NCBI GenBank assembly: GCA_038150265.1
Contig: JAYOTF010000045.1
Span: 1-20,764 of the forward strand
DNA: 20,764 bases
From: Deltaproteobacteria bacterium
GTDB lineage: Bacteria; SAR324; NAC60-12
Direction of reading: 5' to 3'
Shown: piece after piece, positions 1 to 19,290 of the stretch
How positions within the stretch are numbered: position 1 is the stretch's first letter
Layout: every line of letters begins with the position of its first letter
Notes under the pieces: model-generated
Databases searched by the model: none
Told to the model about the DNA's origin: nothing
What the model saw: the letters and a program-made list of their open reading frames with translations, nothing else
Position numbers and translations under genes: made by a program

Positions 1-2847
1 AAGCCTTCTGTTCCGACCCTCTTCTGGCTCAAGCCGGCCTTGAAGAACGTCCACCCCGACCGTCCCTCCTCCTGGGCTCAGGCCCATGAGGTCCTTCAGG
101 AGCGCCTGCACGCCTTTCAGGAGCACCTTCCGCTGTCACCGGCTCCCGCTGACTCTCCAGATCCCCGGGCCGATGGCCTCCGGGAGACCCTCTTGAATGT
201 GGAGGAGCTGGAGGACCTGGTGGCATGGCGGGTGTACCTGGAGTGGGAGCTTGCGCAGGGCCTCTGCACACTGGGGCCCGATCAGGAGGGCGCCGTGGCG
301 CAGTTGCCTCGGCCTCAAAACGCCTGGCGGCTGCTGCGCGACCTGGCGTTGAGTCCGGAGGCCCCCCAGAAGGAGGTGCTGCTGCAGGCACGCCTCGACG
401 GGGCCTTTCTGCCCCTGAAGGTTCTGGTTGACGCCCTCCCGCCTCAGCGACGGACCATCCGGCAGATCCTGCGACCCCTCCGGAGGCTGGAGGAGCAACC
501 GGAGGCTTTTGTCAAGGGGCTGGTCTCGCTGGTCCGAGGAGGGGTGGTCAAGCGTCGCATTTCGCCCGCTCTGCTGCGCGAGGTTCCGGACCCCTTGCAC
601 TCGCTGCTCCTCATCCAGAAGCACCGCACGCACCTGCTGGCCCCACCGCTTCTGGAGCAACTGGAAGCCGCCCCGCACCAGTTTCCTCGCACTCCGGAGT
701 GGAAGGCCTTGAAGGAGAACCGGGCTCGGGCTCTGGCTGAGCTGGAGCAGGGCACCCTGACGGCCCAGGCGTGGACCCAGTGGATGAAGCATGAGGAGGA
801 CTTTCAGGCCCATCTGCCGGTGATCCTCCAGAAGCTGCTCAACCTGCGCCCACCGTTTCACCTCACGATCCATCCCAAGGTGTGCCGGGCTCTGGAGCGC
901 TGGCAGACGGAGCTGCCGATCTGGGCCCTGCTGTTTCTGGATGCCCCCAGGGCCAATCGGCTGATGTGGCTGCAGGCCTTCCCGCGCACTGCGGATCCCA
1001 GGCAGCTGCCTCAGGTGGTGCTCAAGGAGCTGCAGGAGCCTCTGGAGAGCCAACGCTCCTCCCTGGACGCCACCCCTTCGGAACCGCGTTTGGTACAGGA
1101 GCTGACGAAGGTGCACCGCTGGGTCCAGGGGCTCCAGCAAGCAGGGCTGCTGCACCAGGTCCTGAGCCCTGAGTGGCTGAGGAAAGCCCTGAGCCTCCCT
1201 CAGCTCTTTTCGGCAGGGCTGCGCTACCTGGAGCCACGGACGCTGGTGAGCCTTCCGGAGGTGCCTCGGGACCAGCGTGAGGAGTTCCTGCTGTGGACCC
1301 TGCGAGGACGTCCTGAAGAGGAGCCGCTGCTTCAGGGGGTTCTTCAGGAAATCACTCCGGCCCGTGTCCGGGAGTGGCTGGAGCCCTGGCGTCGGCGTCG
1401 GCTGCAACGGGGAGGTCCGGAACATGTTCGGCTCCTGGTGCAGATGTGGCAAGTGGTCCGCCAGGAGAAGGGGCCTTCCTCGAAAAGCTGGCAGGAGGAC
1501 CTGAGCGCGATGTCGCCTCAGGAGCTTCGGGCGGTCAAGGACCAGCTGGGCGCCTCGGCGCTGAAGCCTCGGGAGTGGCAGCACCTGGTGCAGCAGCCCT
1601 GGTTCTGGAAGGAGCCCTCCCTCCAGGATGACCTGCGGCACTTCCCGTTTCGGAGTTGGAAGGCTCGGGGGCAGGAGCTCCCGGCGTCAATGCGGGCGCT
1701 GGCAGAGCAGGATCCCACGTTTCTGGACTGGGTGGTGACGCGTGCTCCGGAAGCCTTTCAGGACCTCTTCCTCCAGCAGCATCCGTGGTGGGAGTTGCTT
1801 CCGATGGTGATCCATCGGGCGCTGGTGGCTCGGGCGTTTTCCTCCCACGTTCAGCCCGAACAGATTCCTCAGGCTCTGGAGTTTCTGCAGGCCCACTATG
1901 GGCCCAATCAACGAGCCGCCCTCGAGCTGGCTCTGCACTTTGGCCTTCACCATGCGCCGTTTCTGCTGGGGGTGGCCTCTGGACTTTCGCTGGGACGAGA
2001 GGAGGACCTGAAGGGGAACGAGTGCGATGCCTGGTACCAAACGCATGAGTTGCCCAAGCGCTCGGGAGGCGTCCGGGTGATCACCGCCCCCCAGGCCCCT
2101 CTGAAGCACTTTCAACGCGCCGTGCTGGACCGGGAGCTCAACCAGTGGGACCTGCATGAGGCGGCCACAGGGTTCCGCAAGGGCATGGGGATTGTGGAGA
2201 ACGCCCAACGGCACTGTGGGCATCGTCTGGTCGTCAATGTGGACATCCAGGGGTTCTTTCCAAACACCCGCCTGGTTCAGGTTCTGCGGGTGCTCACCCA
2301 GCGCCTCCGGGGGCGTTTTCAGCCTCGAGCCATCCGGCTTCTGGCGGTGCTGCTCAGCTACAATGGCGCCCTGCCCACAGGCGCTCCCACCAGTCCGGCC
2401 CTGGCCAACCAGATCCTCCGTCCGGTCGATGCCGCCCTGGCCACAGTGGCTCACCGCCAGGGGGTGGTCTACACCCGTTATGCCGATGACCTGACCTTCT
2501 CGGCCAATCATTCGGGAGCCATGAAGCTGCTGCCGTTTGTGGAAGAGGTGCTGGCCGGGCAGGGGTACGTGCTGGATCCGAAAAAGACGAACTTCTTCCG
2601 CAAGGGGCGGCGCCAGAGTGTGACCGGGCTGGTGGTCAATGAAAAACCCAATTGGCCCAAACCCCTCAGGCGCCGCCTCCGGGCAGCCGTTCACCGGCGG
2701 GTGCAGACTGAGGAAGCCGCGCTGTGGCATGGGCGTCCCGTGAGGGATGATCAGCTGCTGGGGCTGGTGGACTTCCTGGCCCAGACGCAGCCGGAAGAAG
2801 CCGCAGCCCTCCGGGCTCAGCTCCAGACGAGGGGAGTGGGGAAATGA
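1..2847 (+). CDS. Retron-type reverse transcriptase with a very long (>660 aa) uncharacterised N-terminal region; probably 5'-partial
   Basis: The C-terminal ~270 aa carry RT motifs in order: YxxxxLPKRSGGxRxIxAP, HEAATGF, NAQRH (2200-2214, retron NAxxH), VDIQGFFP, LPTGAPTSPALAN, YTRYADDLTFS (YADD 2479-2490) and QSVTGLVVN (VTG 2620-2628). The frame is open from base 1 and the TTG at 40 has no clear RBS, so the true start may lie upstream of the window. Confidence 0.9.
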   Translation, partial: KPSVPTLFWLKPALKNVHPDRPSSWAQAHEVLQERLHAFQEHLPLSPAPADSPDPRADGLRETLLNVEELEDLVAWRVYLEWELAQGLCTLGPDQEGAVAQLPRPQNAWRLLRDLALSPEAPQKEVLLQARLDGAFLPLKVLVDALPPQRRTIRQILRPLRRLEEQPEAFVKGLVSLVRGGVVKRRISPALLREVPDPLHSLLLIQKHRTHLLAPPLLEQLEAAPHQFPRTPEWKALKENRARALAELEQGTLTAQAWTQWMKHEEDFQAHLPVILQKLLNLRPPFHLTIHPKVCRALERWQTELPIWALLFLDAPRANRLMWLQAFPRTADPRQLPQVVLKELQEPLESQRSSLDATPSEPRLVQELTKVHRWVQGLQQAGLLHQVLSPEWLRKALSLPQLFSAGLRYLEPRTLVSLPEVPRDQREEFLLWTLRGRPEEEPLLQGVLQEITPARVREWLEPWRRRRLQRGGPEHVRLLVQMWQVVRQEKGPSSKSWQEDLSAMSPQELRAVKDQLGASALKPREWQHLVQQPWFWKEPSLQDDLRHFPFRSWKARGQELPASMRALAEQDPTFLDWVVTRAPEAFQDLFLQQHPWWELLPMVIHRALVARAFSSHVQPEQIPQALEFLQAHYGPNQRAALELALHFGLHHAPFLLGVASGLSLGREEDLKGNECDAWYQTHELPKRSGGVRVITAPQAPLKHFQRAVLDRELNQWDLHEAATGFRKGMGIVENAQRHCGHRLVVNVDIQGFFPNTRLVQVLRVLTQRLRGRFQPRAIRLLAVLLSYNGALPTGAPTSPALANQILRPVDAALATVAHRQGVVYTRYADDLTFSANHSGAMKLLPFVEEVLAGQGYVLDPKKTNFFRKGRRQSVTGLVVNEKPNWPKPLRRRLRAAVHRRVQTEEAALWHGRPVRDDQLLGLVDFLAQTQPEEAAALRAQLQTRGVGK

Positions 2848-3620
2848 AAAGGGTTTGGCCGGGCAATGCGGCCCACATGAGCGAGGTGGCTTCCGGAGCC
2901 GCCCACCTGGTCTTCACGAGCCCTCCTTACTGGGGGCCTGAGTCGGAAGCGGCGCTGCAGGCGCCTCGGAAGCAGCAGGTGGCCTGGGAAGCCGTGGGAG
3001 CCCAGCTTCGCGCCTTCACGGAGTCCCTCAAGCCGGTGGTTCAGGAGGTGTCCCGGATTTTGGCGCCGCAGGGCGCAGTGGTCTGGCAAATCAAGGACCT
3101 CCGGTTTGGTGAGGCGCTGATTCCCCTGAGTGACTGGCACAGCGCGTTGCTTCAGGCCCAGGGGCTTCGCCTGATGGGGCGGCTCGCGTGGCTCCCGGTG
3201 CGGGTGCGTCCCCAGCTGCTCCCGACGTTTCTCCGGCACCCGGAACGCTCCCGCTGGCATCCGCTGGATCCGGAGTACTTCCTGATCTTTGCCACCGAAC
3301 AGGGGCTGGCGCCCTCCACGCTTCCGGAAGCCTGGGTGCAGGAGCTGGAGGAGGAAGCCCGGCTGGTGGAGTGGGTGCAGCCCCTGTGGCGCCTGGCCCG
3401 TGGGTTTCACCGCAACACCCACCCGCATGCCACCCCACCGGCCCCCGCCCGGCGCCTGCTGAAGCTGCTTTCTGATCCCGGAGACCTCGTCGTGGACCCC
3501 TTTGCCGGAGGCGGGACGATCTTGCGGGAGGCGCGTTTGCTGGGGCGCCGGGTGCTGGGGTATGAGGTCAACCCCCACTATGCTGAAGTGGCCCAGCAGG
3601 CCCTGAACCCTTTGCCGTGA
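2844..3620 (+). CDS. Beta-class N4-cytosine/N6-adenine DNA methyltransferase-like protein
   Basis: N-terminal catalytic motif IV (LVFTSPPYW), then RILAPQGAV; C-terminal SAM-binding motif I (SDPGDLVVDPFAGGGT) followed by GRRVLGYEVNPHY. ATGA overlap with the RT stop; GAGGGGAG upstream. Confidence 0.88.
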   Translation: MKRVWPGNAAHMSEVASGAAHLVFTSPPYWGPESEAALQAPRKQQVAWEAVGAQLRAFTESLKPVVQEVSRILAPQGAVVWQIKDLRFGEALIPLSDWHSALLQAQGLRLMGRLAWLPVRVRPQLLPTFLRHPERSRWHPLDPEYFLIFATEQGLAPSTLPEAWVQELEEEARLVEWVQPLWRLARGFHRNTHPHATPPAPARRLLKLLSDPGDLVVDPFAGGGTILREARLLGRRVLGYEVNPHYAEVAQQALNPLP

Positions 3621-3626
3621 ACCGTC

Positions 3627-4562
3627 ATGTCCCCTCAAGATCCGAATCGTGTCACCCGAGGCGCCCTTCCGCTGCTGTTTTACACCTTCCTCCAGCACCC
3701 GGAGGCTTCTGTGCGCCAGCAGGTTCAGCAGCACCTGGACGCCTGGGTGGAGGAGGGCACCCCTCATTTTTCGGCAGAGGCGGTGGAACAGGTGCTGCAG
3801 GCTGCTTCCGGAACCCCGCTGGAGCCCTTTCGGCTGGATCCGGACAACCGCAAGGTGGCCACCTGGCTGGTCCGCATCGCCTTTTCCAAACGGTACCGCC
3901 AGACCCGGGTTGTGATCAACAGCACCTTCAATCCGCAGAACAAAGGCGGGCTGGTGGTCACGAAAGACCTGAAGGCCTTTTTTGTGGAGCGCCTGCGCTT
4001 TGTCCGGAAGAGGCGGCGGAAGGTGCCCCCGGCGGCATGGGCCTTTCATCCGGGGCGATGCCCAGACCCTGATGACGTCCCGAAGCCGCTGGAGGCCGTT
4101 GGGTTGGTCGGCGAGCGGGGCTACGAGGCACAGCTGGACATTCCGCTGTGGCTCCAAACGGCCTGGGGCTCGTCCCTGTTTGCGCGGCGGCCGAGCCGTC
4201 CGATCCTCCTGGCGACGAACTCCCGGTTGCATCACGGGCAGTCGCTCGTGGATGAAGGCATCGGCGTTTCGACAAAGGGCCGGACGCTGTCGCTGGTGCT
4301 GGAGCGTCCGGAGCAGGTGCTGCGGCTGGGACCCCGCCTGCTTTCCAAAGGACTGAAGCTGATCCTCACAACGGGGGAGCAGGAAGCAGCGCACGTGGAG
4401 TTGGACTGGAAGGTCTCTGGGACAACGCCGTTGATGCTCAAGGCGCTTCCTCGCATCAAGCGAACGGACCTGAACCACTGGTGTGACGTGGGCCCCCTGA
4501 AGGGCCCGTTACTGCCTCCTCCCCTGAAGGAGCAGATCACCCAGTGGATCGTACTGCCATGA
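3627..4562 (+). CDS. Hypothetical protein (311 aa) within the RT cassette
   Basis: ATG 6 nt after the MTase stop, co-directional, protein-like composition; no family recognised. Confidence 0.7.
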   Translation: MSPQDPNRVTRGALPLLFYTFLQHPEASVRQQVQQHLDAWVEEGTPHFSAEAVEQVLQAASGTPLEPFRLDPDNRKVATWLVRIAFSKRYRQTRVVINSTFNPQNKGGLVVTKDLKAFFVERLRFVRKRRRKVPPAAWAFHPGRCPDPDDVPKPLEAVGLVGERGYEAQLDIPLWLQTAWGSSLFARRPSRPILLATNSRLHHGQSLVDEGIGVSTKGRTLSLVLERPEQVLRLGPRLLSKGLKLILTTGEQEAAHVELDWKVSGTTPLMLKALPRIKRTDLNHWCDVGPLKGPLLPPPLKEQITQWIVLP

Positions 4563-4587
4563 CACTCTTACCCGGAGGGATCCTTCC

Positions 4588-6228
4588 ATGACTGTGACGC
4601 TTCCTCTCATGCTGACCTCCCTGCGACGCCTTTTGCCGGTTCATTCGGAGGAGGTCCCGGTTGCAGAGGCGGTTCTGTTTCAAGAACTGGTGGAGCAGGT
4701 AGTGCTGGACACACAGGTGCCGGAAGCCCAGGTCCACGGCTCCCTGGAGTTCCTGCAGCACCTGTGGCACGCGTTGGGGCTGCTCGACCCGTTTGCCCTT
4801 GGGCAGGGGCGGTGGCAGTTTGTGAGCTTTCCAGCCTCGCTGATGGCCCGCTCCCTCCTGGAGAGCCTGGCCCAGGAGCAGCCGGAGCTGCTGGGTCCCG
4901 GGTTCTGGCTTCCCGGACCCAATGAAGACACGCAGCGGAAGTGGCTCGCTGAAGCCGAGACGCAGCGCCAGAACCAGCTCCGGGAAGCGGCCCGCCCCAT
5001 CCGTCAGGTGCATGTGGCTTGGGGGCTGATTCGGCTTCAGGGGCGGATCCTGGTCAACCACCGTGAAGACACGCCTCGGCCCGGACGTCCGAATTACGTC
5101 CTGATTGGAGGGAAGCTCAACCTGCATGACCTGGGGGGAAGCTCCGCGCTGTCTCCCGAAGCCCTGGTGCGCCTTCAGCAGGCTCCTCCGGGAGAGCTGG
5201 TGCAGCAGGGGCTGTTCCTGACCCTGGAGCGGGAGCTGCGTGAAGAGCTGGGACTGCTGACCCAGCATTACGAGGCCCGTCGGTTTCATCGGCTTGAAAA
5301 ACCGTACCTCGAGATTGAAGGGTCCCGGGCCAACCATGCGCTGACGCGGTATGACATCTCCTGCTTTGAAGTCCACCTGAACGCGTCCGGGTTTCAGCGT
5401 CTCTGCCAAACCATGCAGGAGACCCCAGACGGGCAGCTGCTCTGGATGACCCCGGAGGAGGTGGCCCGAGGGACGCAGGCTGACCATCGGGTGTACATCC
5501 AGGCGTGGCTGGAAGAGGCGGGCTCCTCCGAGAAGCTGCTCCGGAAGCTCCAGACCCTGCCGGAGTCGTTTGTGGACCCACCCCTGTTTGCGGAAGGGGT
5601 TGACGTCCCGGTCAGTCCGGAGGCGGCTTTTCTGGTGGGAGAAACCGGGAAGGAGCAGAAGGTGTTTGTGGAGTTGACGGATGCTGAGCGCTGGCTGCTG
5701 GTCGGCATGGCGTGGCAGGCGCTGCATGGCACGCTTCAGGGCCCGCAGGGCGTCCATCTGCACCCGTTGGGCTGGATGGAATTCCGGGAGGCGGCCCTGC
5801 TGGAGCGCGTCCGGACGCTGCAACAGACGCTGGAGGCCCACGGGCTGCCGCTGCTGCAAGGTCGGGATTCCGGATGGTTCCGGGTGTCGGTGGCCCCCGA
5901 GAAGCTGTACCTGGCTGAGGAGTTCTTTGAGGTGCAGGCGGTGTTTGCCGAGTCCGGACGCCATGAGGTCCACCTGACGGTTCCGGAGACGGAAACCCCC
6001 GTGGGCACCCTGCCCGCCACGCGGTTTGTTCAGAAGGTGTCCGAGAAGGTCTTTCAGCTGGTGCGGGCCAGCCTGCGAGAGGAGCCGGTGTCGGTGGAGA
6101 TGGATGACCCGAAGCGGAGCCTCCGGGCCGAAGTCAATGCGCCCGCACGGAAGTGGGGCCTCCGCATTGTGTTCCGCTCGCAGAAGAAGGGGACGGAGTT
6201 CCGGACCGACTGCCTTCCTGTGGGCTGA
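4588..6228 (+). CDS. Multi-domain Nudix hydrolase-family protein
   Basis: VAWGLIRLQGRILVNHRE strand pattern, then YVLIGGK...TLERELREELGL (Nudix box REUxEExGU, split by an insertion). GGAGG RBS upstream; extra N- and C-terminal domains. Confidence 0.78.
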   Translation: MTVTLPLMLTSLRRLLPVHSEEVPVAEAVLFQELVEQVVLDTQVPEAQVHGSLEFLQHLWHALGLLDPFALGQGRWQFVSFPASLMARSLLESLAQEQPELLGPGFWLPGPNEDTQRKWLAEAETQRQNQLREAARPIRQVHVAWGLIRLQGRILVNHREDTPRPGRPNYVLIGGKLNLHDLGGSSALSPEALVRLQQAPPGELVQQGLFLTLERELREELGLLTQHYEARRFHRLEKPYLEIEGSRANHALTRYDISCFEVHLNASGFQRLCQTMQETPDGQLLWMTPEEVARGTQADHRVYIQAWLEEAGSSEKLLRKLQTLPESFVDPPLFAEGVDVPVSPEAAFLVGETGKEQKVFVELTDAERWLLVGMAWQALHGTLQGPQGVHLHPLGWMEFREAALLERVRTLQQTLEAHGLPLLQGRDSGWFRVSVAPEKLYLAEEFFEVQAVFAESGRHEVHLTVPETETPVGTLPATRFVQKVSEKVFQLVRASLREEPVSVEMDDPKRSLRAEVNAPARKWGLRIVFRSQKKGTEFRTDCLPVG

Positions 6229-6235: not shown

Positions 6236-7243
6236 TTACCAGAAGTACCCCACCCAGCTCACGGTCAGCCGCTGAGTCGCCGGAACATTTTCGCCACGGG
6301 TGGGGGTGGTCGCCTGAAGGAGGACCTGCCAGGGTGCTTCCTGAGGCGCGGCTTCGAGGTCGGAGAGGGTGCCGAGTCCCACCTCCAGGGTCAGCTCCTG
6401 CAGCACCCGGGGACTGAACTGCTGCCCTCCGAGGGTCGCTGGTTGCTGCTGCAGGTGGTGCCAGTTGAAACCGTAGTGCCAGTTGTCCTGCTCCCAGCTC
6501 CAGCCATACTCCGCTTCAGCCTGATTTCCGGGCGCATACAGCACCTTGTCGCCTGCCAGGTTCTGACGGGTGCCTGCCAGCTGATTGGTCAGCGAGACGC
6601 TGAGGACGTTCCGCCAGCCCGGTGTGGTGGGCATCCAGTGGTTCTGCAAGAAGCCCGTGAGGGCGCCCTGTCCCGAGCCCAGGGTGTGCCCGTAGAGGCC
6701 TCGGGCGGTGTCGGAGGCGCCAGTGGGAAGAGTGGCCACCAATCCCCCAAACAGCACCCGGTTGAGGCCGAGGGAAAGCTCGTGCCGCAGGAACAGGCGG
6801 GCGTCTCCAACGCCGGAAAGCGTTTCGCTGGGGGTGGCTTCCTGAACCCATTCGGCAGACTGCTGCAGCGTGGCGTCTCCGGTGGTGACCGACAAATCCG
6901 CCTGTTGCGTACTCTGGACCAGCGGCACCTTCAGGCCCCAGGCGGTGCGGTCACTCAGGGCCTGGTCGTAGCGCACCTGCAGCTCGGTCCGGGATCGTGA
7001 GACCGAGCCCTCCAGCAGCGCGGCCACCTCTGGGTCACCAGACAGCAGGACCGGCCAGCGCCTGCGGTTTCCTCCAGCGTCAAAGGCTTCCTCACTGGTG
7101 GGCTCATGCAGCACACGCAGGTGCCACTGGGTTCGCCCCTCGGGAAGGCGGTCAAAGCGCTCAAGCGCGTGTCCCACGGAGGGAAGCAGGAAGAGCGCCG
7201 CCAGGCTGGCGCCCAGCAGGCGTTTGGGAAACACAGCCATCAT
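6236..7243 (-). CDS. Exported, probable outer-membrane beta-barrel protein (Phenol_MetA_deg/'transporter'-like)
   Basis: Signal peptide (KRLLGASLAALFLLPSVGHA), SGVGD and LPTG...LGSG motifs, amphipathic strands, C-terminal aromatic residues (YFW). Start overlaps the maf stop. Confidence 0.6.
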   Translation of the reverse strand: MMAVFPKRLLGASLAALFLLPSVGHALERFDRLPEGRTQWHLRVLHEPTSEEAFDAGGNRRRWPVLLSGDPEVAALLEGSVSRSRTELQVRYDQALSDRTAWGLKVPLVQSTQQADLSVTTGDATLQQSAEWVQEATPSETLSGVGDARLFLRHELSLGLNRVLFGGLVATLPTGASDTARGLYGHTLGSGQGALTGFLQNHWMPTTPGWRNVLSVSLTNQLAGTRQNLAGDKVLYAPGNQAEAEYGWSWEQDNWHYGFNWHHLQQQPATLGGQQFSPRVLQELTLEVGLGTLSDLEAAPQEAPWQVLLQATTPTRGENVPATQRLTVSWVGYFW

Positions 7244-10915: not shown

Positions 10916-13189
10916 ATGTCTCAGCCCACGACCTTCAAGTACCTTGGCAAACCGCGTGGCATCATTGACGCGCAGGAAAAACTGACGGGACAGGCCCGTT
11001 ACATTGGCGACCTGCAGGTGGCTGGCCTGCTGCACGTGCGGCTCCTGCTCAGTCCGCATGCGCATGCCCGGATTGTGGCCATTGAGACCACTGCTGCCGA
11101 ACAGGCTCCGGGCGTGAAGGCTGTGCTGACAGCCGATCGGCTCACCCACTGGAACAAGACGGCCGCCTCACGAGTGGGCGCCTTGCTGGCTCGCGGGGAG
11201 GTGATGTTTGAAGGACACCCGGTGGTGGCCGTGGTCGCCGATTCTCCGGCAGCAGCCTGGGACGCCCTGGCCCTGGTGTCCGTGGAGTATGAACCCCTGC
11301 CGGTGGTTCCGGATCTGAAAACAGCCCTGGCGCCGGGAGCGCCGCTGGTGTGGCCACAGGGCATTCCCCGCGATGAATCGAATGTCAGTAGCGACCACGC
11401 CGCGGTGACCGTCGAGGACGAGGGCCATCAGGCGCTGCCGCCCAACGTCCACTCCCAAAACGACTTTGAGCGCGGTGACGTTGAGGCCGGGTTTGCGCAG
11501 TCGGAGGTGGTGCTGGAGCGCACCTACCGGACCGGGATTGTGCATCAGGGCTACCTGGAGCCGCAGGCCTGTGTGGCCCTTCCGGAGCCGATGGGCGGCC
11601 TGGCCCTGTACACCGGAACACAGGGGCCTCGGACCGTTCATGCCGATGTCTCGCGTCTGCTGGACCTGCCCTCGTCTCAGGTCCGGGTGCACCCGATGAC
11701 GCTGGGCGGCGGATTTGGCGGCAAGCATGGGCTGCTGGAGCCGCTTGCTGGCGCCATTGCGCTGCAACTGCAGGCGCCGGTGCGTCTGGAGCTGACCCGG
11801 ACGGAAGACTTCATGACCACCATGCCGGCTCCAGCGTGTGAGGTGTGGCTGAAGATGGGCGTGGATCGCTCCGGGAAGCTGCTTGCCCTGGAGGCACAGG
11901 TGGATGTGGACAATGGCGCCTATGCTGCCGCATGGTGGAGTGCCCTGCTGGCGCTGCTGCTGGGCGGAGCCTACCAGGTTCCGAACCTGAAGATTCACTG
12001 CCAGGAAGTGGTCACGCACAAGCCCATGGCAGGTCCCTACCGGGCCCCCACGGCCCAGACGGCCTGCTTTGCTGTGGAAGCCCACATGGACGACCTGGCC
12101 CGGGAACTGGGGCTGGATCCGCTGGAGTTTCGGCTGCAGAATGCTTCCGAAACCGGAGACCCCATGGTCAATGGCCAACCGTGGCCAAGCCTGAGCATCA
12201 AGGAAACCCTGAATGCCCTCAAGGAGCACCCCACCTGGAAGGCCCGGACCACCGGAGCCCAGGAAGCCTGGGGAATCGCCCTGGGCGTCTGGCCTTGTGC
12301 GGTGGGACCCGCCTCAGCGGTCTGCCGGATGATTCCGGACGGGACGGTGCAGGTGCAGGTGGGCTCCGCCGATGTTTCAGGCGTCAACAGCAGCCTGGTC
12401 CTGGTCGCCGCGGAGGTCCTGTCAATTGACCCCTCGAAGGTGGAGATTGTGCAGGTGGACTCCCGAACCGGACCAGTGGCTCCGCCGAGCGGCGGGAGCC
12501 AGGTCACCTACAGCGTCTCTGGAGCGGTGAGCGCGTCGGCACAGGAGGTCCGGACGCAGCTTTCCAAACTGGCCGCTGAACACTTTGAGGCGGCGGAAGA
12601 GGACCTGGTCTTTGACGATGGCATGATTCACGTCAACGGCCTGCCGACGCAGCGGGTGTCGTATGCGCAACTCGCCCGGCAAGCGGAGTCTCGGAAGGGG
12701 GGCGAGGGGCCGATCATTGCGACATCGAGCAACTCGCTTCCGGAAAATGCACCTGGGGTGGCGGTTCATGCTGTGAAGGTGCACGTTGATCCGGAAACCG
12801 GAGTGGTGACGCCGCGGCAGTACCTGGCGATTCAGGATGTGGGACGGGCGCTCAACCCGCTGCTCGTGGAAGGACAGATTCAGGGAGGCGTGCTGCAGGG
12901 GCTCGGCTGGGGGCTTTGGGAGGAAATGCCGTATGATGCGCAGGGACAGCTTCAGGCGGCAAACTTCCTCGACTACGCCCTGCCGCGTGCGGATAACGGG
13001 GTCACCGTTGAGGTCACGTTACTGGAGCACCCTTCGCCACACAACGTGCTGGGGGTCCGAGGCGTCGGAGAGCCTCCCATTGTCCCCGGAGGCGCGGCCT
13101 TGGCCAACGCGGTCCAAAACGCGGTGCAGGTCCGTCCGACTGAACTACCGATCCGAGCCTCCACACTCTGGAAGCAGCTGAACCCCTGA
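10916..13189 (+). CDS. Xanthine dehydrogenase/CO dehydrogenase family molybdopterin-binding large subunit
   Basis: KLTGQARYIGDL, SPHAHARI, HQGYLEPQ, LGGGFGGK, PYRAP, SGGS, DVGRALNP..VEGQIQGG and GVGEPP motifs. AAGGGAG RBS before ATG 10916. Confidence 0.92.
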   Translation: MSQPTTFKYLGKPRGIIDAQEKLTGQARYIGDLQVAGLLHVRLLLSPHAHARIVAIETTAAEQAPGVKAVLTADRLTHWNKTAASRVGALLARGEVMFEGHPVVAVVADSPAAAWDALALVSVEYEPLPVVPDLKTALAPGAPLVWPQGIPRDESNVSSDHAAVTVEDEGHQALPPNVHSQNDFERGDVEAGFAQSEVVLERTYRTGIVHQGYLEPQACVALPEPMGGLALYTGTQGPRTVHADVSRLLDLPSSQVRVHPMTLGGGFGGKHGLLEPLAGAIALQLQAPVRLELTRTEDFMTTMPAPACEVWLKMGVDRSGKLLALEAQVDVDNGAYAAAWWSALLALLLGGAYQVPNLKIHCQEVVTHKPMAGPYRAPTAQTACFAVEAHMDDLARELGLDPLEFRLQNASETGDPMVNGQPWPSLSIKETLNALKEHPTWKARTTGAQEAWGIALGVWPCAVGPASAVCRMIPDGTVQVQVGSADVSGVNSSLVLVAAEVLSIDPSKVEIVQVDSRTGPVAPPSGGSQVTYSVSGAVSASAQEVRTQLSKLAAEHFEAAEEDLVFDDGMIHVNGLPTQRVSYAQLARQAESRKGGEGPIIATSSNSLPENAPGVAVHAVKVHVDPETGVVTPRQYLAIQDVGRALNPLLVEGQIQGGVLQGLGWGLWEEMPYDAQGQLQAANFLDYALPRADNGVTVEVTLLEHPSPHNVLGVRGVGEPPIVPGGAALANAVQNAVQVRPTELPIRASTLWKQLNP

Positions 13190-13233
13190 GGGTGCGGGAG
13201 GATTCCTGAGGAAGTTTATTGAGTCTGTCTAGT

Positions 13234-13267
13234 GTATTTTAAATTTATATTATGTAAATTTAAATAC
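13234..13267. promoter_or_regulatory. AT-rich inverted repeat, candidate operator/promoter upstream of ltaE
   Basis: TTTAAATTTA (13238-13247), 7-nt spacer, TAAATTTAAA (13255-13264): perfect 10-bp arms in an AT-rich patch. Confidence 0.4.
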
Positions 13268-13593
13268 CCGTAAACACAGACTTGCTTCACCTGCTTCCAG
13301 AAGGACAAAACACTCAGGCGCTCCGAAACGCCCCCTTCAAAGCTTCCAGAAATTTGGGTGAACTCGCTGGGTTGGGGGACTTTTCGTCCGGTTTGCGCTG
13401 GGAGACCCTGGAGAAGGGACGCTGAAAAACGGATTCGGGTCACTTCCCCAGCGAACCCTGCTGGCTGCCCCTGGAGGAAGCCCCAGGGAGGAAACCGGAA
13501 GCCCCCCACGGATCTAATTCATGAGAACCGCTGCCGTGCCAAACGCGCGAACCGGCTGGTTTTGATTCGACTCAAGTAAATAAAATACATATT

Positions 13594-14652
13594 ATGTCAA
13601 ATAATCAAATCGATCTACGAAGCGATACCATCACCAAGCCCACTCCAGACATGCTGCAGGCCATGATTGCGGCTCCGGTCGGAGACGATGTCTTGGGGGA
13701 TGACCCGACTGTTCAGGAACTGGAAGCAGAAACGGCACGGTTGCTCGGCATGGAGGCTGCGGTGTTCATGCCTTCCGGAACAATGACCAACCAGGTCGGA
13801 GTGCGGGCACACACCGAGCCCGGCGACGAGATCCTGCTGGCGGACAATGCGCACATTTACTTCTATGAAGCCGGGGCGCCGGCAGCATTGGCGGGAGTCA
13901 TGTGCCGCCTGCTTCCCAATGAGGGGGGCGTGTTCACTCCGGAAGTACTGGAGCAATTCCTGCGTCCGGCAGACATTCATTTTCCCACCTCAAAGCTGGT
14001 CTGCGTCGAGAACACCAGCAACCGCGGAGGCGGAACCTGTTGGCCACTGGAGCAGCTTGATGCGCTCGTTGAGTTCTGTGGGACCCGGAACCTGAAGCTG
14101 CACATGGACGGGGCCCGTCTCTGGAATGCCGCCATCGCGCAGTCACAACCCGAGTCCCGCCTGGTCCAGGGATTTGAATCGGTGAGTGTCTGTTTTTCCA
14201 AGGGATTGGGGGCTCCGGTCGGTTCTGCTCTGGCGGGTTCTCGTTCCTTCATCCAGCGGGCTCGCCGATTCCGGAAGCAATATGGAGGAGGCATGCGACA
14301 GGCGGGGTTTCTGGCTGCCGGGGCGCTGTATGCCCTGAGGCATCACCGCGAACGGTTGGCGGAAGATCATGCGAATGCGCGAGCGCTGGCCACCGGTCTG
14401 GCCGAGGTGGAAGGCGTGTCGATCAACTGGGAAACCCTGCAGACCAACATGTTCTACCTCAACCTGCAGCCCTTCTCAGCCCAGGTGTTTCAGAAGCTGC
14501 TTGCGGAGCAAGGCGTCGCGGTGATGGCGACGGGTCCGCACACCATCCGGGTGGTCACTCACCTGATGTTTTCGGCTGATCAAGTGGCTCCGACTCTTGA
14601 GATCATGAAAGCAGCACTGACCAGGCTCCGGAGCCTCGCTTCCACGGAGTAA
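13594..14652 (+). CDS. ltaE: Low-specificity L-threonine aldolase
   Basis: DLRSDTIT, VGDDVLGDDPTV, PSGTMTNQ, AHIYFYEAG, HMDGARLWNA, CFSKGLGAPVGS (PLP lysine) and GGGMRQAG motifs. Confidence 0.93.
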   Translation: MSNNQIDLRSDTITKPTPDMLQAMIAAPVGDDVLGDDPTVQELEAETARLLGMEAAVFMPSGTMTNQVGVRAHTEPGDEILLADNAHIYFYEAGAPAALAGVMCRLLPNEGGVFTPEVLEQFLRPADIHFPTSKLVCVENTSNRGGGTCWPLEQLDALVEFCGTRNLKLHMDGARLWNAAIAQSQPESRLVQGFESVSVCFSKGLGAPVGSALAGSRSFIQRARRFRKQYGGGMRQAGFLAAGALYALRHHRERLAEDHANARALATGLAEVEGVSINWETLQTNMFYLNLQPFSAQVFQKLLAEQGVAVMATGPHTIRVVTHLMFSADQVAPTLEIMKAALTRLRSLASTE

Positions 14653-14726
14653 AGGGACGAGCGTTTTGCATTGTATTTTCTGAAAATCCTGAAATGATTT
14701 CCTTTTTTGAAAGGAAACCCCACGCC

Positions 14727-16076
14727 ATGACTGTTACCGAGACCCTAAAAAATCAAGCGATCCAGGCCCGTCAGGCTGCTCAGCAACTGGCCCAGGCATC
14801 GACCGAACTGAAGAACGAGACGCTGCAGGCGATTGCCGCTGCGCTGCGAGCCCAGGTTGGCCCCATCCTTGAGGCCAATGCGAAGGACGTTGCCTTTGCT
14901 CAGGACCTCCGGGAGCGGGGCGAGTTGACAGGAAGTGCCGCAGCTCGCGTGGAGCTCTCAGAGAAAAAGATTGAGCAGATGGCGCAAAGTGTGGAACAGG
15001 TCGCCAGCCTCCCGGATCCCGTTGGTCAGGTGTTGCTGGCACGGCAGCTGGATGACGGCCTCAACCTGTATCGCGTCAGCTGTCCCATTGGCGTGATTTT
15101 GGTGATCTTTGAATCTCGTCCGGATGTGGTGACTCAGATTTCAGCGCTGGCTCTGAAGTCCGGGAATGCGGTCATTCTGAAAGGCGGCAAGGAGGCCCAG
15201 CACACGAACCGGTTGCTGGCCTCTCTGATTCATCAGGTTCTGGAGGCGACGCCCCAGTTGCCCACGCACGCGGTCAGTCTCATTGAAAGCCGAGACGAGG
15301 TCAGCCAGATGGTCCGGATGAGCGAACACCTGGATCTGATCATTCCACGAGGCAGCAACCAGCTGGTGCAGTACATTCAGGAAAATGCTCAGGTACCGGT
15401 GATGGGACACGCAGATGGCATCTGCCACGTGTACCTTGATCCTGAAGCGGATCCAGGCAAAGCCCTTGATATTGTAGTGGATTCCAAGACCGACTACCCG
15501 GCGGTGTGCAACGCCATGGAGACGTTGCTGGTTCATGAGCAGTTTCCGGATGACGTGCTGGCCTCCATCCTCCGAGCGCTGCAGGCTCAAGGAGTGGAAC
15601 TGCGCGGCTGCTCGCGTACCCGGGACCGACTGGAAGGCGCTGCAGATCTGGTGCTGCAGGCAGCAACAGAAGATGATTGGGCAACCGAGTACACCGACCT
15701 GATCCTCTCCATCAAAACCGTTGCTTCCGGAGAAGACGCGGTGGCACACATTCACCACTACGGATCCGCACACACGGACGCCATTGTGACGGAAAATCCG
15801 GAAACCGCCACCTGGTTCATGGAAACCGTCGACTCGGCGGGCGTGTTCTGGAATGCCTCCACCCGGTTTGCGGATGGCTTCCGCTACGGATTTGGCGCTG
15901 AAGTCGGAGTCAGTACGGCTCGCACCCACGCACGGGGACCCGTTGGGTTGGAGGGACTGGTCATTTACAAATACCGTCTGTATGGTGGAGGGCATACGGC
16001 AGGACCGTACTCTCAAGGAGAGCGCCGCTTCCAGTTTCAGGACCTCGCTCCCGAGCTTCCCGCCGCGGGGAAGTGA
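14727..16076 (+). CDS. proA: Gamma-glutamyl phosphate reductase
   Basis: PIGVILVIFESRP, LKSGNAVILKGGKEA, IIPRGS, GICHVY, CNAMETLL, SAHTDAIVT, NASTRFADG..GFGAEVGVST..HARGPVGL motifs. AAGGA RBS before ATG 14727. Confidence 0.96.
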   Translation: MTVTETLKNQAIQARQAAQQLAQASTELKNETLQAIAAALRAQVGPILEANAKDVAFAQDLRERGELTGSAAARVELSEKKIEQMAQSVEQVASLPDPVGQVLLARQLDDGLNLYRVSCPIGVILVIFESRPDVVTQISALALKSGNAVILKGGKEAQHTNRLLASLIHQVLEATPQLPTHAVSLIESRDEVSQMVRMSEHLDLIIPRGSNQLVQYIQENAQVPVMGHADGICHVYLDPEADPGKALDIVVDSKTDYPAVCNAMETLLVHEQFPDDVLASILRALQAQGVELRGCSRTRDRLEGAADLVLQAATEDDWATEYTDLILSIKTVASGEDAVAHIHHYGSAHTDAIVTENPETATWFMETVDSAGVFWNASTRFADGFRYGFGAEVGVSTARTHARGPVGLEGLVIYKYRLYGGGHTAGPYSQGERRFQFQDLAPELPAAGK

Positions 16077-16104
16077 TCCAGATAAACAGTGATATTATGT
16101 AAAT

Positions 16105-16488
16105 ATGTCTAAATACTCGGGACAACTCGCCCTCATCGTCGATGACTTTGCCACCGCACGGCGCTTCATGAACCTGACTCTGAAAGAGCTGGGGTTCGAA
16201 TGCCAGGAGGCCGCTTCAGTGGAAGACGCCATGGCCGTCATCAACGGAGGCACTCCGGTGAACCTCGTCCTCGCCGATACCCACATGCCGGAAAAAACCG
16301 GACTGGACCTGCTTCGGGACATCCGCAATGCCGGACACAAGGAACTGCCCGTTCTGTTGATGATGATGGAGCCCTTTGAGTCCATCCTGTTGGAAGGGGA
16401 GCAACTCAAGATGAGCGGTCACATCGTCAAACCCTTTGACGCCTTTGCCCTCTCCAAGACGCTGGAACAGGTAATGCCGAAGGGCTGA
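16105..16488 (+). CDS. Single-domain CheY-like response regulator
   Basis: LIVDDF acidic pocket, LADTHMP (phosphoacceptor Asp), TGLDLL and KPF motifs. Confidence 0.88.
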   Translation: MSKYSGQLALIVDDFATARRFMNLTLKELGFECQEAASVEDAMAVINGGTPVNLVLADTHMPEKTGLDLLRDIRNAGHKELPVLLMMMEPFESILLEGEQLKMSGHIVKPFDAFALSKTLEQVMPKG

Positions 16489-16489
16489 C

Positions 16490-16669
16490 ATGAGTCGTTG
16501 CATCAATTGCCGCTACTACCAAGTCACCTGGGATCCGAATCAGCCTTACGGCTGCCGGAAGTTGAACTTCAAGAGTCGGATTGAGCCCGCCCAGTACATC
16601 CTCCAGGTTTCGGGAGAGCCCTGCCTTAGTTTTGAGCAAAAAATCAAACGCAAGCCCACTTCTTCCTGA
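16490..16669 (+). CDS. 59-aa four-cysteine small protein (family often mis-annotated 'uracil-DNA glycosylase')
   Basis: Translated by hand: MSRCINCRYYQVTWDPNQPYGCRKLNFKSRIEPAQYILQVSGEPCLSFEQKIKRKPTSS. Pattern CxxC..TWD..PYGC..FKS..P..SG..C..F; starts 1 nt after the regulator stop. Confidence 0.8.
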   Translation: MSRCINCRYYQVTWDPNQPYGCRKLNFKSRIEPAQYILQVSGEPCLSFEQKIKRKPTSS

Positions 16670-16892
16670 TCAGAGCGCCTTAATTTTTAGCGATTTAGCG
16701 TGACCTTTAAAAAGAGCGTCAAAATCGCCAGAATCAAAAGAAAGGGGTTCCATGACTCATGGGTTGAGTCCCCTCAAAAAAAAGGAATGACAGCGAATCT
16801 GAAGGGTCGTTTTTTTCGGAGGGGGATGAAAGGAGGGGCCCAAACGGGGGAAGAGCGTCCGAAAGGGGGAGCATCCGGACGCGGAAAGGCGT

Positions 16893-17246
<354 letters not shown>

Positions 17247-17257
17247 TTAGGGGGTAA

Positions 17258-18166
17258 ATGCGATTGGATGAAAGGCGAATTATCTCCGACTATAGACTTT
17301 TTTTGCAAGTTGAAAAACGATTATCCCCGCCGACCATAGCGCTTTACATCAAGACGACGGAGCATTTTCTGCAATTTTGTCAAAGCTTTAGCGAGCAGCT
17401 CGACCTTCCGGAAGAGCTCCAATGGCCGGACCTGGGACGTCGGGAAGTGGAGCGCTACCTTCAGCACATGCAGGCCCAGGAGCGCTGGAAGGTGAACACC
17501 TGTGCCACACGGCTTGTGGGGTTACGCTCCTTTTTCGGATACCTGGCTCAGCAGGGAATCCTGCGGGCGAATCCGATTCAGCATTACACCTGGACGCAGC
17601 CCTTTCCGGAACTGGAGCGCGAGGAGCAGGACCTGGAAGCCCTCCACCGTCTGCTTGAAGAGGCGCCAAGTGGCTTTGAACCGAACCGGAACCGGCTCCT
17701 GCTCGAGCTGGCCTACAGCTGCGGTTGGACCAGCAGCCAGTTGGCCCGGATCGAACAGATGACCCTGAATCGCGCCAAAACCGGGGTGCAGGTTCAGATG
17801 GGGCGGGAGCAGCGGGAGGTGCCACTCGGAGCCAGCGGACGCCAGCGACTGGCGCTGTACCGCAAGCAACAGCGGAAATTCACTGAAACTTCAGGGTTTT
17901 GGCTGAATGCGTGGGGCGAGGAACTCAGCGATCAGGCCATCCGGGAGATCCTCAAGCAGCAACTGAAGCCGCTGGGCCTGGGGCTCCGTCAGCTCCGGGA
18001 GCTGTCTGCTCAGGCGTTTCAGGAGCGTGGAGCAGACATCCGCTCCATCCAAACGTTTCGGGATGTCCGCTACGTCCGACGGATGCAGTCTCTGAAGCCT
18101 GAAGACTTTGAAGCGCTCCAGGACAAGTTTCAGAAACTGCACCCCCGACGGTCAGTGCCAGAATAG
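17258..18166 (+). CDS. XerC/XerD-like tyrosine recombinase homolog with degenerate catalytic motifs
   Basis: N-terminal integrase SAM-like domain (EKRLSPPTIALY, LRSFFGYL, NP), then RNRLLLELAYSCG, REVPLG and GADIRSIQ. Catalytic residues mostly replaced. Confidence 0.75.
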   Translation: MRLDERRIISDYRLFLQVEKRLSPPTIALYIKTTEHFLQFCQSFSEQLDLPEELQWPDLGRREVERYLQHMQAQERWKVNTCATRLVGLRSFFGYLAQQGILRANPIQHYTWTQPFPELEREEQDLEALHRLLEEAPSGFEPNRNRLLLELAYSCGWTSSQLARIEQMTLNRAKTGVQVQMGREQREVPLGASGRQRLALYRKQQRKFTETSGFWLNAWGEELSDQAIREILKQQLKPLGLGLRQLRELSAQAFQERGADIRSIQTFRDVRYVRRMQSLKPEDFEALQDKFQKLHPRRSVPE

Positions 18167-18808: not shown

Positions 18809-18885
18809 GGCTTCCTCTTCGTGTGAGTTGATGGCTCTTAACCTAGCGCTTCTCCCGCGAAGATGCGATTTGAATCTCGGAATTC

Positions 18886-18923
18886 TTTATATGTACGAAA
18901 ATTAACATTATCGAACATATAAA
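18886..18923. promoter_or_regulatory. 38-bp AT-rich imperfect palindrome upstream of the exonuclease gene
   Basis: TTTATATGTACGAAAA-TTAACA-TTATCGAACATATAAA: 16-bp arms with 2 mismatches and a 6-bp centre. Confidence 0.5.
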
Positions 18924-19290
18924 TTTATCACCTTCATTTCCTCAGAGCCTCACCGAGCTCCGCCTTCCTGAGCCCAACCAGAGGTGGAGGAACATTCGCC
19001 CCGCTCTCCTCGCGCAGGCGAGCATCCGGCAGAGGGATGACCAATCAGGTCCGGACCTGATGAAGCGCGAATGCCGGCGCCGACCACTTGGAACCGCCGG
19101 AACCGTAAAACGCTCCAGCAGTCGAGTGGTGTCCGATCGAGATGCAGCAGGTGCCACTCAGGTCCAACCGGAGCTCGATGTCGCCACAGCAGGCAAAGCC
19201 CGTGAGGGGGAAGCCGGGTCGGAGCAGTTTCAAAAAGAAGGGAGCGGGACTGATCCGGGAACTCACTGAGCTCCCGGCCAGGAGGAGGTG

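Follow-up and report, generated by a model that had tools for sequence, protein, structure and literature searches.

The locus analysed here raises the question of whether an unusually large reverse transcriptase (RT) gene and the three genes packed behind it belong together as one retron-like defence system, as the first-pass annotation of this DNA had proposed, and if so, what kind of retron that would be. The window, that is, the whole stretch of 20,764 nucleotides under analysis, begins where contig C45 begins, at codon 2 of the RT gene (Table 1). The truncation of the RT amounts to about one codon, as residue W9 in the window corresponds in the alignment to W10 of the orthologue in genome G001, which is numbered from its ATG.

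Table 1. Coordinates of the cassette genes and of the gene facing them in the window
Feature	Position	Strand	Length or residues	Source and family
RT	1..2847	+	948 aa	ORF listing; open at 5' end
RT N-terminal extension	1..1920	+	aa 1 to ~640	without known family
MTase	2844..3620	+	258 aa	ORF listing; PF01555
U3	3627..4562	+	311 aa	ORF listing; without known family
U4 (gene 4, Nudix protein)	4588..6228	+	546 aa	ORF listing; predicted Nudix fold
Convergent ORF	6236-7243	-		ORF listing

The ORF listing bore out the layout described earlier: the genes are co-directional, the RT and DNA methyltransferase (MTase) genes overlap by 4 nt, gaps of 6 and 25 nt separate the MTase from U3 and U3 from U4, and the next gene is convergent. 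A Shine-Dalgarno sequence (GGAGGG) precedes the ATG of U4 by 9 nt. The GC3 of the cassette (0.78-0.81) equals that of the flanking genes, and its composition is fully host-like. All three species of the genus examined (G000, G001 and G002) have kept the cassette, with identities to G001 of 53% for the RT, 71% for the MTase, 47% for U3 and 65% for U4, and to G002 of 50%, 53% and 63% for the RT, U3 and U4, G002 having only a remnant of the MTase. Because of the overlap, the short gaps, the Shine-Dalgarno sequence, the retention in G001 and G002 and a GC3 like that of the flanks, we regard the four genes as a real conserved operon around an unusually large retron RT. U3 and U4 were retained with the RT in all three species and are co-inherited adjacent genes. 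The proposed four-gene cassette stands within this genus, but the full set is confined to it. Promoter- and terminator-like sites were no more frequent in the window than in shuffled sequence, and the other genes of the window are metabolic, with no defence island among them.

The RT is a true retron RT. Its translation carries NAQRH (NAxxH, aa 734-738), YADD (827-830) and VTG (874-876); NAxxH and VTG had been named as diagnostic of retrons in the first-pass annotation, and all three motifs are invariant across 40 giants, as we call RTs of ~950 aa. The RT and thumb occupy residues ~672-948, and Pfam RVT_1, matched at 685-876 (E 3.4e-19), was the sole Pfam family in 40/40 giants. We base the identity on these invariant motifs, on the best profile matches of the RT, which are retron RT models (PADLOC, NCBIfam), and on the PDB matches, all 14 of which are retron RTs (Ec86 at E 1.1e-26). 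UG models were absent from the best 25 PADLOC matches, the NCBIfam models Drt2, Drt3a and Drt4 matched at E 1.7e-6 to 0.033, far short of their cut-offs, and the RT has no family-level match to DRT or UG/Abi.

Clustered at 50% identity, the giants fill at least 150 clusters, of which almost all come from uncultured bacteria, and they form a retron clade distinct from the shorter retron RTs. In the RT phylogeny, which had been proposed as a check on the first reading, FastTree split 128 long RTs and 32 fragments from 66 shorter retron RTs with branch support of 100, and the RT of the window fell among the giants. In an IQ-TREE analysis that sampled 34 giants and 40 short RTs, the split between the two had an SH-aLRT value of 100. 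The N-terminal extension had no match in PADLOC and no usable match in the ESM Atlas. It is fast-evolving, and full-length alignment was obtained with only two database proteins (P0028 and P0029). A fused type XIII HEAT/ARM accessory protein was considered as its origin and rejected on the hhalign result (probability of 0.1% against HEAT-ARM_XIII). None of the 78 RT-matching loci on viral contigs aligned with the query N-terminal to residue 619, and none of the 173 plasmid records with RT-domain matches spans 80% of the query.

The top PADLOC match of the RT was RT_XIII at 231 bits, which is a likeness to retron type XIII (the Mx162/Mx65/Ne144 group). As far as that group is covered in Mestre et al. 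2020 (PMC7736814), both have an N-terminal extension of the RT, an ncRNA directly upstream and several accessory genes, and both occur, with inheritance that looks vertical, in lineages of the 'deltaproteobacterial' type. However, the three RTs with type XIII neighbours reached 515-628 bits on RT_XIII compared to 231-241 bits in the giants, which also form their own clade. Genuine type XIII loci have HEAT-ARM_XIII or WGR_XIII plus SWIM_XIII neighbours, whereas neither SWIM nor HEAT-ARM partners accompany the giants, and in PADLOC U3, U4 and the RT extension were without a match to SWIM_XIII, HEAT-ARM_XIII or WGR_XIII. The msr motif of the giants, described below, was not found in type XIII loci. 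By RT_XIII score, clade position and accessory proteins the cassette lies outside type XIII.

In all four giants with complete upstream DNA (G001, G002, L065 and L069) an ncRNA of the msr-msd type lies directly upstream of the RT. It is bounded by perfect inverted repeats (a1/a2) of 15, 14, 15 and 11 nt, respectively, at a spacing of 162-173 nt, longer than in 200, 200, 200 and 198 of 200 shuffles. The repeats end 4-36 nt before the ATG of the RT in G001, G002 and L065, the RT start of L069 being ambiguous. The sequence of the arms varies between loci with their complementarity kept, and common to all four ncRNAs is UUAGGWUC ahead of a 7-bp hairpin that shows compensatory changes. Folding z-scores were -4.7 to -7.2, and the ncRNA cores of G001 and G002 are nearly identical, their proteins being ~50% identical. 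The motif with its hairpin occurred in no other locus of the set, type XIII loci included, and an Rfam search of five loci gave no retron or msr family. An inverted repeat at 6131-6334 of L016 was also considered as an ncRNA and was discarded, as it falls in the apparent coding sequence of the upstream gene. As the contig of the window starts at RT codon 2, the retron ncRNA lies outside the window; BLAST with the G001 RNA and the motif pattern did not find it in the window or the whole assembly, where the RT-flanking position is off-contig. We infer the retron RNA of the source genome from the ncRNAs of these relatives. The ncRNA is compact, at ~190 nt with perfect a1/a2 arms.

Of the family of at least 150 clusters, only 11 giant loci had usable downstream DNA, and here the usual order is MTase, a gene for a clade-specific U3-like protein of ~320 aa and a pair of genes for a MoxR AAA+ ATPase and a DUF2201/VWA protein, the latter combining a metallopeptidase-like part with VWA. 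The pair was present in L065, L066, L067 and L069, and L064 has the AAA gene followed by the contig end; in most relatives with enough sequence this pair is the output module. Five partner families, the MTase, the U3-like protein and MoxR + VWA among them, were found in 0/71 non-giant retron loci. The Nudix protein occupies the MoxR/VWA slot in each of the three species of this genus, where it replaces the usual pair of the clade. In G023 a truncated giant RT continues in frame into the C-terminal half of a DUF2201 protein, and BREX genes adjoin this fusion. We discarded this locus as an intact giant RT beside BREX and treat the fusion as a relic, which shows that the same bacterial family had the MoxR/VWA form too.

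In the AF2 model of U3 (pLDDT 83.7), a helical bundle at the N-terminus is joined by an Ig-like beta-sandwich at the C-terminus. Profile searches of Pfam, PADLOC and NCBIfam gave no family for it, and the protein search found only the two homologues from the same genus. Its structure had no convincing match (best Foldseek E 0.014 with TM ~0.1; best VIA Z 5.8, to generic Ig-like sandwiches), and the ESM Atlas gave only sub-threshold HEAT-repeat leads with scores of at most 0.86. Homologues of U3 follow giant RTs in L062, L064 and L066, with a weak one in L069, and the 'U3-like' gene of L065 and L067 is equivalent by position and length only (pairwise E at least 0.015 to U3). We regard U3 as a candidate adaptor, placed as a conserved positional partner of giant RTs.

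U4 was modelled as a three-part protein (AF2 pLDDT 87.9) with a central Nudix domain at aa ~135-325 (nt ~4990-5562). Its Nudix box consists of GGK, with a ~30-residue insert after the GG, and RELREELGL (REx2EE), and all 22 sequences compared keep R215, E216, E219 and E220. PF00293 was matched by 17/22 members of the U4 family, and Pfam made no Nudix call in the U4 of the window itself. The modelled fold aligned with 130/131 residues of BdRppH (Z 11.4, rmsd 3.1), Foldseek returned Nudix enzymes (E 3e-5), the VIA search with the whole model listed Nudix matches only, and no transmembrane-like segment was seen in the model. Taken from model and motif, U4 is a Nudix superfamily protein with a predicted catalytic REx2EE, in agreement with the first reading. 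Its homologues were in 41/43 genome loci without RT, MTase or U3, beside BREX in L021, MkoA (Mokosh) in L043 and L046, a Sel1 + REC/HEPN-like pair in 15 loci and DUF3825 in 5 loci, and a Macro-domain gene follows U4 both in G001 and in L021. Judged by these neighbourhoods the Nudix gene is a mobile module. The earlier pairing of the RT with a Nudix protein is seen in the three species of this genus, but elsewhere U4 mostly stands without an RT and MoxR/VWA is the usual partner of giant RTs. The predicted function of U4 is probably that of the swapped-in effector, the toxic output of the retron.

We consider it reasonably likely that the locus is a retron of an undescribed clade, with a giant RT and an upstream ncRNA, a facultative MTase, U3 and a Nudix output exchanged for MoxR/VWA, and that the complex of RT and msDNA restrains the effector. 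The RT would make msDNA from the ncRNA like characterised retrons, and the RT-msDNA complex would keep the effector inactive, probably via the N-terminal extension and U3. If a phage interfered with the msDNA or with this complex, the Nudix protein would be freed and would then hydrolyse a nucleotide-type substrate that the cell needs (NAD+/ADP-ribose, (d)NTPs or the 5' ends of RNA), aborting the infection. The MTase would most likely methylate the double-stranded msDNA stem or host DNA and so modulate sensing. Nudix and Macro domains are counted among NAD/ADP-ribose-linked effector domains by Kaur et al. 2020 (PMC7159879). As a counter-point, U4 can function in other settings, and its place beside the retron genes could be simple co-location.

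The last point leads to a reading that we find unlikely, though deserving of attention, in which RT, MTase and U3 are one unit that has lost its MoxR/VWA output and U4 is an independent defence or housekeeping gene that landed beside it. With 41/43 of its loci lacking the other three genes, U4 can work elsewhere, its neighbours are diverse, the Macro-domain gene behind it in two genomes suggests that it travels with a partner of its own, and decay is known in the lineage from the G023 relic and the MTase remnant of G002. However, U4 sits in the exact slot of MoxR/VWA, 21-42 nt after U3 and with its own Shine-Dalgarno sequence, in 3/3 species; RT and U3 are intact at ~50% divergence, which implies selection on both and a need for an output. 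The variable partners of U4 are also more in keeping with an exchangeable module, effector or accessory, than with a gene that stands alone.

The MTase matched PF01555 (N6_N4_Mtase) at 81.1 bits against a cut-off of 26.7 and was called MTase_II by PADLOC. Motif IV (SPPY, aa 26-29) precedes motif I (FAGGG, 220-224, in DPFAGGG), an order of the beta class, and the best PDB match was 2zie, followed by the DNA cytosine-N4 MTases 8s9m/8s9n. By profile and motif order it is a beta-class N6/N4 DNA methyltransferase, as first annotated, and we take the SPPY motif to point to N4-cytosine. An MTase lies downstream of the RT in 7/11 giant loci, among them L062, L064, L065, L068 and L069 (tblastn E 3e-32 to 4e-65), and is missing in L066, L067 and L070, with a 36-aa remnant in G002. 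The recurrence of MTase and U3-like genes across RT homologues agrees with the partners first proposed, as both follow metagenomic RTs of the same clade, but from this distribution the MTase is a facultative accessory member of the cassette and not essential. Since it is absent or decayed in 4/11 giant loci, methylation cannot be central. We give little weight to a more speculative model, in which giant-RT retrons guard DNA methylation: their own MTase would mark the double-stranded msDNA stem, and the extension with U3 would read altered methylation and release the output module. The triggers would be phage MTase blockers, destruction of S-adenosylmethionine or phage methylases over-modifying the stem; an altered methylation state of fresh msDNA would then release MoxR + VWA/metallopeptidase in most lineages and the NAD/ADP-ribose-type Nudix protein in this genus. 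If true, no earlier retron would be known both to produce its DNA bait and to label it chemically.

A retron without an anti-phage role, e.g. an msDNA producer domesticated for regulation, for DNA modification or for a mobile element, seems very unlikely to us. To our knowledge, every retron tested so far is a defence system, defence genes adjoin some relatives of the cassette (L065 with a NERD-UvrD helicase, L067 with an AriA/NsnB-like ATPase and the G023 relic with BREX), and swapping of output modules is typical of conflict systems. The metabolic flanking genes, the host-like composition and the seemingly vertical inheritance in the genus would nevertheless suit such a role, and vertical inheritance is also described in Mestre et al. 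2020 (PMC7736814) for the myxobacterial type XIII retrons, which for long had no known role. We regard as extremely unlikely a modification-based system (restriction-modification- or BREX-like) in which the MTase marks self and the RT with the other proteins restricts unmethylated DNA, for although the MTase is the best conserved cassette protein (71% vs 47-65%), follows the RT in 7 of the 11 loci and the G023 relic has BREX genes beside it, it is lost or decayed in four loci where RT, U3 and effector genes persist, loss of the self-marking enzyme from a restriction-like system should be lethal, and the searches (Pfam, PADLOC) gave none of the cassette proteins a nuclease domain.

The retron with an exchanged output, our preferred reading, shares with Retron-Eco1 (Ec86), Ec67, Ec78, Ec83 and Eco8 a homologous RT core, the arrangement of an a1/a2-flanked ncRNA, RT and effector, and, as we read it, the logic of RT-msDNA restraining a toxic effector. 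In contrast, the RTs of the solved retrons have 310-600 aa and the giant adds an N-terminal extension of ~640 aa, which is unseen in described retrons. The effectors of the solved retrons are NDT, Toprim, PtuAB or OLD, whereas Nudix or MoxR + VWA output modules are new to described retrons, as is a dedicated DNA methyltransferase within the operon; no solved retron has such a gene.

An RT beside a Nudix protein is also known from UG23, a class 1 UG/Abi RT associated with a 2TM-NUDIX protein that is regarded as an exchangeable effector, according to the account of these defence-associated RTs in Mestre et al. 2022 (PMC9226505). In that account, the UG23 Nudix protein is small, SMODS-associated and has two transmembrane helices, whereas U4 has three domains. 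Further, UG/Abi RTs are not retron RTs and have no known msr-msd RNA, and the NCBIfam DRT models match the giant RT weakly, at E 1.7e-6 or worse. The MoxR-type AAA+ ATPase and VWA protein that relatives of the cassette carry side by side resemble the MoxR-vWA (VMAP) couple, read as a thresholding chaperone for effector release in Kaur et al. 2020 (PMC7159879). There the couple is tied to DGR-type RTs and many effectors, and in the passages searched there is no link to a cassette of retron RT, ncRNA and MTase; the window itself is without a MoxR or VWA gene.

The giant-RT cassette is a variant of retrons from a lineage for which no description was found in the literature searched, and in that literature, Table 1 of Mestre et al. 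2020 (PMC7736814) included, no described retron type pairing an RT with these partners was found, in agreement with the first-pass annotation. RTs of 300-600 aa underlie the division of retrons into 13 types and the models now used to detect them, and as the giants have cross-family PADLOC scores and stay below the NCBIfam cut-offs, such models may leave the clade unclassified. Within a single bacterial family, the clean swap of MoxR + VWA for Nudix provides a natural experiment on how modular the effectors are, and the compact, defined ncRNA makes the system directly testable and possibly a useful new msDNA producer. The search of sequencing runs listed none of RNA. On the upstream side of the window, Logan contigs of runs X2 and X3 reach 456 and 198 nt past its start.

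On sequence grounds, the reverse transcriptase (RT) of gene 1 belongs to the retron lineage, where it stands in a clade of its own. Its translation holds NAQRH, YADD and VTG, its top match in PADLOC is RT_XIII (231 bits) with other retron RT models close behind, and 14 of 14 PDB sequence matches are retron RTs (Ec86, E 1.1e-26), which bears out the retron-type RT of the first-pass annotation. All NCBIfam retron models were under cut-off for this protein, and DRT models were far weaker. Searched exhaustively by phmmer with the window RT, a set of 1.84 billion representatives yielded 14,389 matches. Among the best 150 of these, 122 are at least 780 aa long with the RT at the C-terminus, and the N-terminal 640 residues were aligned by only two database proteins, P0028 (53%) and P0029 (38%). 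The phylogeny that the annotation called for was built from 226 RT-domain rows (150 database matches, the window and 75 of 80 metagenome loci, the remaining five having an RT-domain alignment of <180 residues). A branch with support 100 places all 128 long RTs and 32 shorter or cut sequences on one side and 66 shorter retron RTs on the other, and IQ-TREE with a random subsample (34 giants, that is, RTs of ~950 aa with a ~640-aa N-terminal extension, and 40 short RTs) returned the same single split (SH-aLRT 100). The giants are not members of type XIII, since they score 231-241 bits on RT_XIII (window, L065, L069) compared to 515, 554 and 628 bits for three RTs whose neighbours are SWIM_XIII and either HEAT-ARM_XIII or WGR_XIII, and fall below even L112 and L072, which lack a family-level RT_XIII score and still reach 260-273 bits (the top match of L112 is the type III-A model). 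RVT_1 is the sole Pfam family in 40 of 40 giants, and the extension of the window RT has no PADLOC match. A HEAT-ARM_XIII-like extension was rejected (hhalign probability 0.1%).

The four genes form a conserved operon. The spacing described earlier was exact in the ORF listing (four co-directional genes, a 4-nt overlap, gaps of 6 and 25 nt), as was the convergent gene at the end of the cassette. Pfam places RVT_1 at aa 685-876 of gene 1 and N6_N4_Mtase in gene 2, and matches neither gene 3 (U3) nor gene 4 (U4) of the window. GGAGGG lies 9 nt ahead of the start of gene 4, promoter-like and terminator-like sites in the window are not commoner than in shuffles, and the GC3 of the cassette genes (0.78-0.81) is that of the flanking genes.

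Coordinates of the cassette, its surroundings and features of related loci
Feature	Location	Strand	Remark
Gene 1 (RT)	window 1-2847	+	ORF
Gene 2 (MTase)	window 2844-3620	+	ORF
Gene 3 (U3)	window 3627-4562	+	ORF
Gene 4 (U4)	window 4588-6228	+	ORF
Convergent ORF after gene 4	window 6236-7243	opposite to cassette
Low-GC part	window 13000-20764
Tyrosine-recombinase-like gene	window 17258-18166		low-GC part
3'-5' exonuclease-domain gene	window 18152-18808	-	low-GC part
Cut RT/VWA frame	L016:6258-9095		G023:C121
Macro-domain gene	L014:1082-2909		G001
Macro-domain gene	L021:7790-9529		BREX-adjacent, other bacterium
Partial second msr 5' motif	L014:9545-9583	-	G001
ADP-ribosylglycohydrolase	L065:2807-4294	-
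NERD + UvrD-like helicase	L065:12270-13970	-	PADLOC RTasNERD-Hel
AAA_15/AAA_21 + DUF3696 ATPase	L067:5083-6864		NsnB/AriA-like

Of the 88 phylum genomes compared, four reach E <=1e-40: the window's own, two other species of its genus (G001 and G002) and a relative in the same family (G023). G001 keeps all four genes (identity: RT 53%, MTase 71%, U3 47%, U4 65%), and G002 keeps RT (50%), U3 (53%) and U4 (63%) with a 36-residue remnant of the MTase. In G023 the giant RT breaks off at about residue 779, short of YADD, and lies in one open frame with the C-terminal half of a DUF2201/VWA protein, directly upstream of the BREX genes brxA, brxB and brxC; this frame is what a deletion has left of the cassette's MoxR/VWA form. 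That form was seen in a metagenome scan of 80 retron loci, nine of them in the giant clade. Counting the 11 giant loci with at least 700 nt 3' of the RT (three genus loci included), an MTase directly follows the RT in seven (window, G001, L062, L064, L065, L068 and L069; tblastn E 3e-32 to 4e-65 in the five metagenomic ones) and is absent in L066, L067 and L070. U3 has clear homologues in six loci (window, G001, G002, L062, L064, L066) and a weak one in L069 (E 2e-5). L065 and L067 each hold a gene as long as U3 and in its place, and these two genes are mutually related but not demonstrably related to U3. L070 has none, and the L068 contig stops too early to show one. A MoxR-type AAA+ gene and then a DUF2201_N + DUF2201 (VWA) gene are found in L065, L066, L067 and L069, and the L064 contig ends within an AAA gene. 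Profiles of the MTase, U3, AAA, DUF2201 and U4 families matched none of the 71 non-giant retron loci, and the usual cassette is therefore ncRNA, RT, optional MTase, U3, MoxR and VWA. Thus, of the proposed neighbourhood, MTase and U3 recur after giant RTs, but U4 stands beside the RT in the window's genus only. Defence-type genes also flank the cassettes in L065 and L067.

The window comprises bases 1-20,764 of contig C45. As W10 counted from the ATG of the G001 orthologue aligns with W9 of the window RT, this contig opens at roughly RT codon 2 and the window cannot hold the ncRNA, nor was it found in the window's own assembly (3.39 Mb, 87 contigs). In G001 and G002 the spacer 5' of the RT (370-480 nt) contains a ~190-nt block that is near-identical between the two, while the proteins are only ~50% identical. 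Perfect inverted repeats mark both ends of the block, GCGGCAACCGGGTTA / TAACCCGGTTGCCGC in G001 and CAGCAACCGGATTA / TAATCCGGTTGCTG in G002, with compensatory differences between the species; 162 nt (G001) and 164 nt (G002) separate the arms, which stop 20 and 36 nt ahead of the ATG, respectively. Two distant metagenomic giants share the layout, and their arm sequences are unrelated. In L065, 173 nt separate arms of 15 nt that stop 4 nt ahead of the ATG, and an internal hairpin has 41-nt arms; in L069, 170 nt separate arms of 11 nt, and an internal hairpin has 35-nt arms. The longest repeat was shorter than the real arms in 200, 200, 200 and 198 of 200 mononucleotide shuffles (G001, G002, L065, L069), and the folding z-scores are -4.7 to -7.2. 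Common to all four RNAs is UUAGGWUC and then a 7-bp hairpin varying by compensatory changes (UCCGGCG/CGCCGGA versus CCUGGUG/CGCCAGG), a motif present in none of the other loci searched, type XIII included; no Rfam family matches the RNA. As read from these features, the upstream RNAs have the classical order a1, msr, msd, a2 and RT gene. The window contig starts precisely where the ncRNA gene should end, public contigs from other runs reach 456 and 198 nt past that point, and the assembly break seems to fall in the retron RNA region. The partial second msr 5' motif seen only in G001, GGATCGATCCGG.GTTTCGCCGGAGGGG, ~225 nt upstream of the full ncRNA, is a stretch of the retron RNA gene that has been duplicated locally.

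The Nudix assignment of gene 4 was upheld. Its translation has a split Nudix box (GGK...RELREELGL), and a word-indexed protein search found 21 homologues; R215, E216, E219 and E220 are invariant in the family, together with N-terminal (WxFxSFPA) and C-terminal motifs, and PF00293 matches 17 of 22 members, the window's protein not among them. In the AlphaFold model (pLDDT 87.9) the core, which has a helical domain on its N-terminal side and an alpha/beta region on its C-terminal side, matches BdRppH (Z 11.4, rmsd 3.1, 130 residues), and sequence and model agree on a Nudix fold with a predicted intact catalytic tetrad. In the window's genus U4 occupies the place held elsewhere by MoxR and VWA, and gene order shows an exchange of the putative output module between the two. 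Under the main rival explanation, U4 would be an independent neighbour of a retron that has lost its own output; U4 relatives lie in 43 loci (one-genome-per-species contigs), with RT, MTase or U3 in only two, both in the window's genus. Their neighbours include BREX pglZ/brxL (L021), MkoA (L043, L046) and DUF3825/cold-shock-domain proteins (five loci). Two further genes recur as a pair: one encodes a protein with Sel1 repeats (about 900 aa, range ~820-1000 aa), the other a ~480-aa protein whose N-terminus is receiver-like and which carries the HEPN-like motif RNWxxH (Rx4H). This second gene was present in 15 of 43 loci. Since these neighbours vary, U4 acts as an interchangeable module of conflict systems, in line with the module exchange that we prefer. 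The pair, which has no PADLOC match, lies beside U4 (~8001 in most) in L022, L028, L032, L036, L037, L039, L041, L042, L044, L047 and others; with U4 it has the look of a conflict system of three genes that has not been described. A Macro-domain gene directly 3' of U4 in two loci, split into two ORFs in G001 and lacking after U4 in the window, hints at ADP-ribose or NAD-type substrates.

Gene 2 is an MTase as annotated, with N6_N4_Mtase in Pfam and SPPY preceding FAGGG; among solved structures, 2zie comes closest, along with two DNA cytosine-N4 methyltransferases, and SPPY is the usual motif of N4-cytosine methyltransferases. The best of five U3 models (pLDDT 83.7; the others 66-74) has a bundle of helices at the N-terminus and a sandwich of Ig-like type. 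Neither a convincing structural relative nor a catalytic signature was found, and we read U3 as a candidate adaptor.

Building on the retron-lineage RT, the retron-type ncRNA of the orthologues, the conserved operon, the Nudix fold and tetrad and the module exchange, we propose by analogy with characterised retrons that the RT would make msDNA, and that the RT-msDNA complex would restrain the output module together with the extension and U3. Phage perturbation would free this module, and U4 could then deplete or alter an essential nucleotide pool and abort the infection, the MTase probably being an accessory acting on the msDNA stem or host DNA. The earlier suggestion that no described type has MTase and Nudix partners agrees with the passages of Mestre 2020 (PMC7736814) on the 13 retron types, none with an MTase, MoxR/VWA pair or Nudix partner, and with full-text literature searches, which found no description of a retron with Nudix, MoxR, DUF2201 or methyltransferase + AAA, nor of a 'type XIV', though supplementary tables could list such RTs as unclassified. 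The text of the 2026 SPIRE retron survey mentions neither methyltransferase, Nudix nor N-terminal. The nearest published RT-Nudix pairing, going by the relevant passages of PMC9226505, is UG23 with a 2TM-NUDIX protein, but UG23 is in a different RT family.

Past ~13 kb the GC content of the window falls from ~0.65 to 0.52-0.60, and the edge of a piece of acquired DNA, without relation to the cassette, may lie here.
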